Assembly: GCA_964016885.1 (NCBI GenBank)
Contig: OZ024755.1
Location: 35,340,001-35,404,000, forward strand
Length of the DNA stretch: 64,000 bases
From: Eledone cirrhosa
Taxonomy: Eukaryota
Direction: 5' to 3'
Part shown: positions 6,064 through 60,628 of the stretch, piece by piece
Numbering within the stretch: position 1 is the stretch's first letter
Layout: every line of letters begins with the position of its first letter
The notes under the pieces: model-generated
What the model was told of the DNA's origin: nothing
Database searches by the model: none
Seen by the model: the letters and a program-made list of their open reading frames with translations, nothing else
Program-made: the position numbers and the translations under genes

Positions 6064-6217
6064 ATATGCAGAGGTTATATTTAATTTGTTGGGATTCAAC
6101 AAGCTTAAAAATCTTTATAACTGATATAAAGCACTCAACAAGTTAGTGGAGTAAATATATAATATATTAATAAATGAAAACTATATTTATAAAACCATAA
6201 TTATTTTTTTATATATT

Positions 6218-6277
6218 TTTTATCTGATGAAAGGGCACCATAATTTACCTTTGTCGCCCTTGAAATATATAATAAAA
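6218..6277 (+). ncRNA. Minimal type I hammerhead ribozyme
   Basis: Stem I uuuuau/auaaaa; CUGAUGA 6224-6230; stem II aagggc/gcccuu; GAAA 6262-6265; palindromic loop 3 UAUA; UA, with predicted cleavage after 6271. Confidence 0.8.
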
Positions 6278-6361
6278 TAATTATGGTTTTATAAATATAG
6301 TTTCCATTTATTAATATATTGTATATATATATATATATATATGTGTGTGTATATATATATG

Positions 6362-22836: not shown

Positions 22837-22881
22837 AGTCATAGTCCTTTCGTCACACATTCTGTGACCTCTTCAGTGACT
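22837..22881 (-). ncRNA. Minimal type I hammerhead ribozyme (CUGAAGA variant)
   Basis: Exact reverse complement of 23016-23060. Confidence 0.72.
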
Positions 22882-23015
22882 GGGGATTCCTTTCTTTGTT
22901 TCTGTGCCTTTCCTTTCTTCTGTCCTACGCCATTTTGTTTCTATGTGTGTGTTCACACACACAGACAGAAACAAAATGGCGTAGGACAGGCACAGAAACA
23001 AAGAAAGGAATCCCC

Positions 23016-23060
23016 AGTCACTGAAGAGGTCACAGAATGTGTGACGAAAGGACTATGACT
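23016..23060 (+). ncRNA. Minimal type I hammerhead ribozyme (CUGAAGA variant)
   Basis: aguca-CUGAAGA-g-gucaca(gaaug)ugugac-GAAA-ggac-UA-ugacu; stems I and II pair; one extra nucleotide after the core. Confidence 0.72.
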
Positions 23061-26842: not shown

Positions 26843-27353
26843 TAATTGATATTTTAGATTCATAGACAGAATAATTGACTTCTCCGAGGAAATTATAGCC
26901 AAAGATTTGTCAATATACTACATTTCTATACCAGTGTATCAATTCATACCTATATTTCTACACATCTATCTCTCCCCCTCACATTATCCCTTTCTTTCTT
27001 TCTCTGTCATCATCATCAACGTTTAACGTCCGTGTTCCACGCTTGCATGGGTTTGGACGGGGGTTTTCCCACTTGAGACATGAGTGATTGTCTTGCTCGC
27101 TTAGGACTGTCTGGCGGGTTTTCTACAGCTGGATGCCCTTCCTAACACCAACCATATTTACAGTGTGGGGCTGGGAGGTTTTTACCGTGTTGCCTACAAT
27201 TACTAATACTCTTTTATTCCTAATTAAACCATTTTTCAACTGAACAATTTGTCAGCATTTTCTATTCCGTTTACCAATATATACAAACATGTATAAATAT
27301 TATATATATATATTATATATAAGATCAAAAGATGGTTAAATGAGTTCCATGTA

Positions 27354-27420
27354 TTTTATTATGCGCATTTCAAAAACAAATATCATCATGCAATAACATT
27401 TGTGTTTTCATCAGATAAAA
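27354..27420 (-). ncRNA. Minimal type I hammerhead ribozyme
   Basis: Exact reverse complement of 27543-27609. Confidence 0.8.
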
Positions 27421-27542
27421 TAGAAGGACATGATATGAAGGTTAAAAAACACTTGTGGGTAGTACAGTTTTAAATCAACATATGTTGATTTAAAACTGCA
27501 CTATCCACAAGTGTTTTTTAACCTTCATATCATGTCCTCCTA

Positions 27543-27609
27543 TTTTATCTGATGAAAACACAAATGTTATTGCATGATGATATTTGTTTTTGAAATGCGC
27601 ATAATAAAA
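27543..27609 (+). ncRNA. Minimal type I hammerhead ribozyme
   Basis: uuuuau-CUGAUGA-aaacacaaauguuau(ugcaug)augauauuuguuuuu-GAAA-UGCGCA (palindrome)-UA-auaaaa; predicted cleavage after 27603. Confidence 0.82.
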
Positions 27610-27775
27610 TACATGGAACTCATTTAACCATCTTTTGATCTTATATATTATGTATACTCCAGTCCTACAAACTGTAGAGTGCTTCTTATCTGATATCTGC
27701 ATTGCTTTATTGTACTACAATAAAACTCACCTCCTACATATATATATATATTATATATATACAAACATGTATAAT

Positions 27776-27809
<34 letters not shown>

Positions 27810-54546: not shown

Positions 54547-54579
<33 letters not shown>

Positions 54580-54966
54580 ATATATAAGATCAAAAGATGG
54601 TTAAAAGAGTTCCAAGTATTTTATTATTCGCATTTCAAAAACAAATCTAACCATCAAATTTTAACCATCTTTTGATCTTAAATTATTTATACCCCAGTCA
54701 TGCTTTGGCGCATAGAGTTACGGCCCTTGCCATTCTGAGTTCAAATCCCGCCGAGGTTAACTTTGCCTTTCATCCTTACGGGGTCGATAAAATAAAGTAC
54801 CAGTAATACACTGGATAATTGCTGGCCTTGTGCCTAACATAGAAACAATTATTTATACCCCAGTCCTACAAACTGTAGTCCTACAAACTGTAGTCCTACA
54901 AACTGTAGAGTGCTACTTATCCGATATTTGCATTGCTTTATTGCACTACAATAAAACTCACCTCCT

Positions 54967-55017
<51 letters not shown>

Positions 55018-55188
55018 GGTGAGTTTTATTGTAGTACAATAAAGCAATGCAGATATCGGATAAGAAGCACTCTACAGTTTGTGGGACTGGAGTATGCATA
55101 ATATAAGATCAAAAGATGGTTAAAGGATGTTGATTTAAAACTGCACTATCAACAAGTGTTTTTTTAGCCTTCATATCATGTTCTCCTG

Positions 55189-55255
55189 TTTTATCTGATG
55201 AAAACACAAATATTATTGTTTGATGATGTTTGTTTTTGAAATGCGCATAATAAAA
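55189..55255 (+). ncRNA. Minimal type I hammerhead ribozyme (same family as 27543)
   Basis: uuuuau-CUGAUGA-stem II-GAAA-UGCGCA-UA-auaaaa; core unchanged, substitutions confined to stem II and its loop. Confidence 0.8.
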
Positions 55256-55807
55256 TATATTGAACTCCTTTAACCATCTTTTGATCTTATATTATATATA
55301 TATATATATATATATTTCTGTTTACCTTTGGCATACACATATATATATACATATATGTATATCTACGTATATATATATACATATATGTATATCTACATAT
55401 ATATATATTGTTATACTTGGGGAGGGTCATATTTGTGTAATATTGCCAGAATTAATAACAGAACACACTCACTGTTTGGTTGGTTTTCGCTTTTCGCTTC
55501 TGTGTCTTTTATATCGGTAATCTAATTTATTCGGTCCTCAATGTTGCCATTGACTGACCAACGGTAAAAAATAATACAGATACAATATAGACACAAACAC
55601 ATATATAGTTTATCAAAGTTCATTTGTTGCACATCTGCAACATCGTCAGTGGTGCTATTGTTTCCTCCCATTACATTGTATGTCTACGCCATCACAGTGA
55701 GTGTGTCCTGTTATTAATTCTGGCAATATTACACAAATATGACCCTCCCCAAGTATAACAATATTTGTTTCGACACACGATTTCATATAAAAACCCTCGC
55801 AAAACTA

Positions 55808-59360: not shown

Positions 59361-60244
59361 TATATACTCATTAGTACAGAATGTGGTGTCACATACTTCT
59401 ATATAGTTTACCATTACCATCCAGCAGCCAGTTTTGGTATGGCTGGAGTTTACTGTAATGATGATGATGATGATGATGGTTACAGGAGAAATGAACAATG
59501 TGAATTTATTCAATGTATTAGTTGCAAATATAATAATTAGTAGAACAAAACATCAACACAATACTGAGTTAAGGCTTAGACAGGAAATTGATTTTGTAGC
59601 TATTTTTCACAGATTTCCTCACTTGCATGAACAAAAAAATAATGTGATGTATTAAAACCTGTTGTTATTGTTTTCTTTATTTTATTTATTTGTATAGTAC
59701 ATTTTTTTTATATTTTCTTTATATTTTCTTCATTTTTTAAAAATATTTTCTTCATTTTTTCTTGTTTTTTTTTAATATTTTCTTCATTTTTTTTTTATAT
59801 TTTCTTCATTTTTTTTCCTAGTAGAATTTTCCACTGTGGTATTGTCAAGAGATTACTGAATATTTCAAACATTTGCATATGATTTGTTCCTTTCATCCTT
59901 CTTAATCCATTTAGTAAAGACTAATCTACAGAAACAGACAAATTACACACCACCGCACTAGACATACTCACACATATATATTATATATGTATGTGAGTGT
60001 GTATGTGTATATATATATATATATATTCGTTTAACCCATGTCGCCTTGGAAAAATGGACATAAAACAATGATATCTCTCTCTCATATATATATATATACT
60101 CTTTTACCTGTTCCAGCCATCCAGCTGAGGCCCTGCTGGGGCACCGCCAAATATATATATATAAATCTTATATATATATATATAAAATCATATATATATA
60201 AATCTTAACCATTTAACATCTCAGGGTATGTCATGTATCATTAT

Positions 60245-60297
60245 ATTTTGTCTGATGAGGACGTACTGTTGTACATCCGAAATATGTATAATAAAAT
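60245..60297 (+). ncRNA. Minimal type I hammerhead ribozyme
   Basis: auuuugu-CUGAUGA-ggacguac(uguu)guacaucc-GAAA-uaugua-UA-auaaaau; predicted cleavage after 60290. Confidence 0.8.
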
Positions 60298-60628
60298 GTA
60301 ATTGATCAAAAGAACATCTATTTTATTAATATTTGTATTTTAATATTAATAAGTCTGGAAAATTATTTTCCGTAGAGTGCTTCTAATCTACTGTAAAACT
60401 CATTCTTTGATATACTCATTGAATCTTGTTTCACTCTTTAATATATATATATATAACAAAGGAAGTATGGTAAGGAACCCAGTGGACCATAACGCATCAG
60501 AGTACTCAATACTTAGGGTAGTAGAGTGGGTAACAGGAAAAAACAGTCAGGACCCCAACGGCTGAGCTCCAGCCATTTTGACAGCGTTCAGATCTAGCTG
60601 CCAAAATGGCCAGAGCTCAGCCATCGGG

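Follow-up and report, generated by a model that had tools for sequence, protein, structure and literature searches.

A hammerhead-bearing palindrome in Eledone cirrhosa is probably a head-to-head insertion of the pLTR of a Penelope-like retrotransposon

A 64,000-nt stretch of the genome of Eledone cirrhosa (contig OZ024755.1, positions 35,340,001 to 35,404,000 of the forward strand; hereafter the window) contains a spacerless palindrome that carries a hammerhead-like ribozyme motif on each arm. The question raised by this locus is whether it is a self-cleaving, non-autonomous retroelement in its own right, as the earlier note had proposed, or a piece of another element. It is best explained as a head-to-head insertion of the ribozyme-bearing pLTR of a Penelope-like element (PLE), likely made in one twin-priming event on the element's own RNA, a reading to which we assign a probability of about 0.8. 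Its features are as follows.

27315..27483, minus strand: short (S) arm, pLTR positions +1 to about +170, reading outward to the left and stopping at the short end point of the family
27480..27739, plus strand: long (L) arm, pLTR positions +1 to about +258, with the haplotype of the ORF-linked pLTRs in L031, L032 and L042
27480..27483, no strand: central ATAT common to both arms, probably the annealed 3' ends of two cDNAs, with +1 as the putative capped RNA start
27541..27611, plus strand: type I hammerhead-like motif, predicted to be cut after 27603 (stem I of 8 bp, long stem II closed by an A-U pair, loop 3 palindromic)
27352..27422, minus strand: mirror copy of the hammerhead, core from 27414
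27649..27739, plus strand: one-sided 'tail' of about 85-90 nt from the short to the long end point of the family, running into the ORF in tandem copies
27276..27314, no strand: TA-rich target, left flank
27740..27800, no strand: TA-rich target, right flank

The spacerless palindrome proved to be real, with its centre between 27481 and 27482 (…AAATCAACAT on the left, ATGTTGATTT… on the right). The arms, 27315-27481 and 27482-27648, are 167 bp each and complementary at 164 of 167 positions; the three mismatches (27464/27499, 27459/27504 and 27424/27539) all lie outside the hammerhead and at most 58 nt from the centre. Its description as a symmetric unit did not survive, since the right arm outruns its mirror by about 90 nt, to 27739, and the insertion, which sits in (TA)n, is therefore a lopsided unit of 425 bp. 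Both of its ends abut TA-rich sequence, and no target-site duplication was resolvable in these flanks. Compared with shuffled sequences the fold of the palindrome has a z of -38, and the hairpin of a centre-spanning transcript is calculated at -255 kcal/mol.

Counts of exact patterns across the 3.0-Gb assembly place the locus in a very large family. The pattern from +6 to +32 occurs in 12,071 copies, of which 4,226 continue through the upstream context, and head-to-head junctions whose spacer does not exceed 30 nt number 1,690; the window's own 28-nt junction alone has 747 exact copies. Among the first 100 copies on contig C1, 43 read through upstream exactly and 38 form 19 head-to-head pairs. 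Among the first 100 listed, the read-through copies form 30 divergent pairs whose partners lie 134 to 5,935 bp from each other. Truncation points are thus scattered over kilobases, and the only sharp boundary is the one at +1, which is the A of TTTTC^ATATG. The locus at 27315-27739 is thus one ordinary stub among well over a thousand in the genome.

That the insertion is the product of a young retroelement, as had been suggested, is borne out: the best 40 of 1,013 candidates found by searching the genome with the unit are 99-100% identical to it and belong to a Penelope-like family. In L007/L031 a broken RT-endonuclease frame precedes the unit by about 870 nt, and the unit lies also, upstream context included, directly upstream of an open frame in four of the 12 fetched loci (L050, L053, L055 and L056), where about 15-20 nt separate the end of the unit from the frame. 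The repeat unit is 3,703-3,864 bp long (same-strand spacing 3.7-3.9 kb). Because it is found both directly upstream and about 1 kb downstream of the ORF, the 258-nt unit is to be regarded as the pLTR. It shows the partial tandems, direct or inverted, with a one-sided tail that define the pLTR of EN+ Penelope-like elements, and it has the hammerhead motif inside it. The reading of the palindrome as itself a self-cleaving non-autonomous element is accordingly not supported: its unit is the pLTR of an ORF-bearing element, and the copies fall into many subfamilies with varied junctions.

When the genome was searched with the protein, 150 places scored at 95-100%, many of them lying in frames that stay open for about 820 codons. 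The ORF encodes 809 amino acids from the first Met and contains the motifs RLRW, YRDD, DKT, CxCx5C, LIY..YFG, CxxC and CxH, with no CCHH; 68 protein homologues are 31-39% identical. An AF2 fold using 48 homologues reached a pLDDT of 85 and has telomerase RTs (TERT) as its best structural matches; the single-sequence fold reached a pLDDT of only 34. Pfam gave no match for the ORF, its pieces or six homologues, and a sequence search of the PDB with the ORF gave nothing significant. The C-terminal region holds LIY687..YFG702 and a conserved K/H/E region in a 49-sequence alignment, and the fold matches listed are polymerases, none of them GIY-YIG. On its sequence motifs the element is an EN+ Penelope-like element with an RT and putative GIY-YIG-type ORF bearing Hydra-clade motifs, an assignment made by motif match to the published description. 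It shares with the Hydra clade as described in PMC8557442 the RW motif, DKT, the CxCx5C linker, the lack of CCHH, CxxC and CxH around a conserved E/N, the hammerhead and the use of (TA)n targets, (TA)3 abutting 70 of 74 intact ends here. It departs from that description in its length of 3.7-3.9 kb, where 'generally <3 kb' is given as typical but not strict, in having RWT where RWK is expected (K stands in 33 of the 49 aligned rows), and in being present in a very large number of copies, many of them with an 821-codon frame still open. An Asn-rich, disordered linker lies between RT and endonuclease (residues about 592-664; L048:3665-6094) and recalls the N-rich inserts reported for rotifer Penelopes in PMC3846280.

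The two arms of a stub are closely related to each other and consistently different in length. Of 22 diagnostic sites, an average of 0.42 distinguish the two arms of a locus but 6.9 the arms of different loci (33 loci including the present one), and in 10 of the 33 the arms are identical. Palindromes occur in many haplotypes and subfamilies, and their junctions differ from locus to locus. The haplotype of the palindrome at 27315-27648 is that of pLTRs lying beside ORF pieces, in the three loci named above, and the commonest haplotype is that of the open-frame copies. Arms that share a haplotype could stem from a single RNA, from two transcripts of the same master, or from gene conversion at a later time.

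With end points defined as short at about +170-175 and long at about +258-260, 34 of the first 40 of the 747 exact palindromes proved to be L+S and six to have one damaged arm. Non-exact junctions were added from the first 50 head-to-head junctions (46 analysed, four dropped by the duplicate filter), and for the combined palindromic loci the count is 63/70 L+S and 7/70 with one damaged arm, S+S and L+L pairs being absent. A further 58 loci include 55 with an arm starting at +1 and two that read through; an inverted partner is present in 48 of 53 stubs and absent from five. These 48 asymmetric stubs comprise 38 in which S is complete and L the partner, nine with the reverse arrangement and one that is damaged. 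In the two samples together every intact pair, 110 of 110, joins one short (about +170) to one long (about +258) arm; a single L+L locus (L002) occurs among the 30 loci of a separate set. The samples consist of the first listed places on contig C1, and 40 of the 58 loci of the asymmetric set were picked by the base before +1. Among the 38 S-complete stubs the L partner starts at or before +64 in 18, at +150-163 in eight, and at +179 or beyond in 12; in this biased sample (L155-L194) it never starts within +65-149, the span that holds the hammerhead (0/38). As a separate observation, a large loss in one arm was seen in eight of 41 exact palindromes (L078, L079, L098, L099, L102, L103, L105 and L113), mostly of diverged haplotypes, and is compatible with the instability of spacerless palindromes.

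The common 5' end is equally strict. None of 92 arm ends at 46 junctions extends beyond -2, and the seven arms that reach -2 form one ambiguous class with a single G/C between two complete arms. The sequence TCA+1T is initiator-like, and in L1 an extra base is copied opposite the 5' cap; the literature search returned no citation for such cap copying. The untemplated base at -1 is G in 11 of 18 cases, T in seven and A in none (p = 4e-4 against an assumed 0.22), and the presence of this additional G at the sense +1 speaks for a capped RNA of sense polarity as the template. The genome-wide count of the base before +1 (G 619, A 429) does not settle the cap question, because the sites at which partner arms anneal are often preceded by G.

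From the observed ORF linkage, S+L pairing, +1 boundary, haplotype sharing and (TA)n ends we infer a capped sense template, nicks in two strands, two priming sites and annealing of the cDNAs, in the following order. Transcription of the element would start at the A of TTTTC^ATATG and yield a capped RNA. Its endonuclease would nick both strands of a (TA)n tract, whereupon one target 3' end would prime at about +258 and the other at about +170, both of them AU-rich sites. Priming at these cap-proximal sites would yield two short cDNAs running to +1, sometimes with a C opposite the cap; their self-complementary ATAT ends could then anneal, and each would be filled in on the other to give a spacerless palindrome with a one-sided tail. 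The commonest junction, which is that of the present locus, is the product expected if two ATAT-ending cDNAs pair through these four bases. The kilobase-long inverted copies would instead come from priming in the downstream pLTR. It is possible that a stub-derived RNA with the same +1 also serves as template.

In twin priming of L1, two primers from one target act on one RNA and leave an inverted 5' part joined by microhomology. The scheme proposed here resembles it in the two primers, the single RNA and the inverted 5' part, and differs in that both start sites are fixed and the cDNAs often overlap fully. The scheme also builds on in vitro work with Poseidon of Anolis (PAc), for which PMC11167929 describes two RT start sites within the RNA that delimit the tail, together with cutting and extension of both target strands. 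PAc belongs to another clade, however, and the start sites reported there have neither strand preference nor homology to the cut DNA, whereas here the ends are TA-like and one of each is paired.

What part the hammerhead plays is a separate matter. The plus-strand motif has its core CUGAUGA at 27549, GAAA at 27592, UGCGCA, and the cleavage triplet AUA; stem II has 15 positions with a single C-U mismatch and an A-U closing pair. The type I core CUGANGA/GAAA/NUH and stems I-III are thus present, stem III being predicted in the dimer only. The closing pair of stem II is A-U in 72 of 74 arms and G-U in the other two, so that the expected G10.1-C11.1 pair, described as highly conserved in PMC4209133, is absent. 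A search of Rfam did not match the hammerhead model at the gathering score or at E<=10, and found only hairpin-driven miRNA matches below the gathering score. The suggestion that loop 3 is suited to dimer pairing held up well: the pair probability of stem III in the monomer is 0.0, the duplex of the AUGCGCAU segment with a second copy is calculated at -10.5 kcal/mol, and a dimer design is known for animal hammerheads (PMC4209133). In a transcript across the centre of the palindrome every hammerhead pair has a probability of 0.0 and the whole folds as one hairpin. Symmetric, viroid-like replication in both polarities was considered and rejected, a single transcript carrying one sense hammerhead and burying it. 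The hammerhead would act, if at all, as a dimer on tandem transcripts of the element; for the PAc protein, PMC11167929 reports that it is dispensable for insertion.

The core is retained in 71-75 of about 75 arms. Variants across haplotypes are one-sided and pair-preserving at five stem pairs, with no two-sided changes, and N7 varies between U and C; the fold is for this reason taken to be kept in the masters and not selected in the stubs. The hammerheads of the two arms are indeed identical, as first noticed, but not beyond chance, three mismatches having a probability of 0.21 of missing 67 of 167 nt. Over 29 undamaged palindromes (of 40 examined) arm differences number 17/2059 inside the hammerhead and 30/2232 outside, at rates that are similar per base class. 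Selection on the hammerhead within palindromes was likewise considered and dropped: its apparent significance with damaged loci included (p = 0.009) was lost once they were removed (p = 0.11). As each stub was likely built anew at its landing site from two joined cDNAs, the ribozyme is likely a passenger there and not the engine of a separate element.

Three other accounts of the stubs have to be weighed, all of them unlikely. The one that survives best, though improbable, is that the stub is a non-autonomous, retrozyme-like element with an internal promoter, transcribed from +1 and mobilised in trans by the Penelope-like protein. The very high number of stubs is in its favour; Penelope has an internal promoter (PMC2377424), so that transcription of a stub is conceivable, and pLTRs are reported to suffice for mobilisation in trans (PMC3846280). 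Against it, the junctions differ between loci, the haplotypes of the stubs are those of ORF-linked pLTRs, eight of 39 long ends reach into the element sequence that precedes the ORF, and the ribozyme would be buried in read-through RNA. The arrangement of the units weighs on both sides. Retrozymes are head-to-tail tandems (PMC7229834; bioRxiv 10.64898/2026.07.22.740005), and a genome-wide search for direct tandems with exact patterns found one L-to-+1 junction and three S-to-+1 junctions, the latter all at one locus (L195), compared with the 1,690 head-to-head junctions. The window unit is head-to-head and the short-unit tandem is confined to that one locus in the genome, so the head-to-tail organisation of a retrozyme is not seen here. 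At L195 itself (L195:2029-2764; G000:C15, about 27.7465-27.7473 Mb) four hammerhead units of 166/167 nt, all intact, follow one another head to tail and are accompanied by a partial unit and by an L arm in inverted orientation, the haplotype of the four units differing from that of the long arm; the array is a candidate newborn retrozyme and natural dimer substrate. With the non-LTR retrozymes of the same two sources the stubs have in common a type I hammerhead with a palindromic loop 3 and a short non-coding unit derived from a pLTR, but those are head-to-tail and expressed as circles.

Still less probable is that the second arm arose by self-priming (fold-back) of a single cDNA or on an antisense RNA template, as proposed for rotifer Penelopes. 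This would account for the shared haplotypes and spacerless centres, it is the published reading of head-to-head palindromes (PMC3846280), and small snap-back-like fillers do occur at some junctions. In the 12 of 38 stubs whose partner starts at +179 or beyond, however, the partner holds solely sequence that is missing from the complete arm and lacks any S-arm sequence, which rules out simple fold-back for those; moreover, either arm can be the complete one (S in 38, L in nine), and the extra G is better explained by a capped template of sense polarity than by the antisense self-priming of PMC3846280. Very improbable, finally, is a DNA-level foldback element or MITE, an assembly chimera, or any role as a cruciform, for which the near-perfect AT-rich palindrome, the one-arm losses (8/41) and the finding that no record listed in public DNA data bridges this centre with 31 letters on each side might be adduced, but against which stand the fixed inequality of the arms, their three mismatches, the identity of the sequence as the end of an RT-encoding element, and 180 raw reads (one RAD-seq run, another library) that connect the same +1 boundary to an inverted L arm. 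Reads in the public DNA data come loose before 27479/27480 and behind 27646-27656, at the same boundaries, and one contig of another organism (n = 1) bears a variant palindromic junction. There is also indirect evidence, in the 747 exact junctions, their diverse flanks and their lopsided arms, that the palindrome is not an assembly artefact.

The head-to-head insertion of a pLTR has precedents in its layout, since insertions of EN-bearing PLEs with an inverted pLTR plus tail are already published (PMC3846280, PMC8557442, PMC4209133). The insertions of the first two sources have the head-to-head inverted 5'-truncated copy, the junction palindrome, the tail at one end, the hammerhead in the pLTR and the microsatellite targets in common with those described here, and PMC4209133 records opposite-strand hammerhead pairs 100-700 bp apart. 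The present stubs differ in the length of the tail (about 85-90 nt, compared with 30-40 nt there), in that both arms end at one fixed +1 (747 identical junctions), and in the strict short-plus-long pairing, which is counted here. The origin of the inverted repeats and one-sided tail of PLEs is stated as open in PMC8557442. In the main text of openly accessible papers no account was found of strict S+L pairing, of twin priming or of a cap signature for elements of the Penelope type, and the passages of PMC12910113 and PMC13282606 that were consulted hold nothing on these points.

It is tempting to extend the proposal to PLEs in general, a conjecture for which we would offer even odds. Twin priming would then be obligate, a protein dimer setting the two nicked strands on two fixed sites of one capped sense RNA, after which the cDNAs would anneal; cap-proximal priming would give rise to stereotyped palindromes by the thousand, and now and then a jump from +1 back to the short site would produce a head-to-tail hammerhead array such as L195, a retrozyme in the course of being born from a pLTR. 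In so young and abundant a family, simple large counts (S+L, the fixed +1, the extra G) discriminate between models, and the many open ORFs make a direct in vitro test of the mechanism feasible. Such stubs are easily mistaken for MITEs, miRNA hairpins or viroid-like ribozyme elements.

Two neighbouring copies of the family lie elsewhere in the window.

55017..55302, plus strand: second family stub, in which an inverted L arm (about +139 to +250) meets a forward S arm
54572..54970, no strand: third, older stub, made of an inverted S-arm piece and a forward L-arm piece and interrupted by an interspersed repeat unrelated to the family, adjoining 55017..55302

The first of these contains the further intact hammerhead copy that had been placed near 55189, its core being found intact at 55195. 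Other hammerhead families are represented as well. At 6065-6320 a second family (core at 6224, G-C-rich stem II, loop 3 UAUA) lies in (TA)n and repeats the layout of the stubs, its longer arm being inverted and its shorter arm forward. A third, at 60190-60460 (core at 60252), is flanked by (TA)n, and its downstream part has GTAGAGTGCTTCT in common with the family tail at 27649-27739; from its conservation in sequence, GTAGAGTGCTTCT may possibly be a protein-binding motif. Lastly, an identical CUGAAGA...GAAA motif on both strands, about 145 nt apart at 22876-23021, suggests another small inverted repeat.
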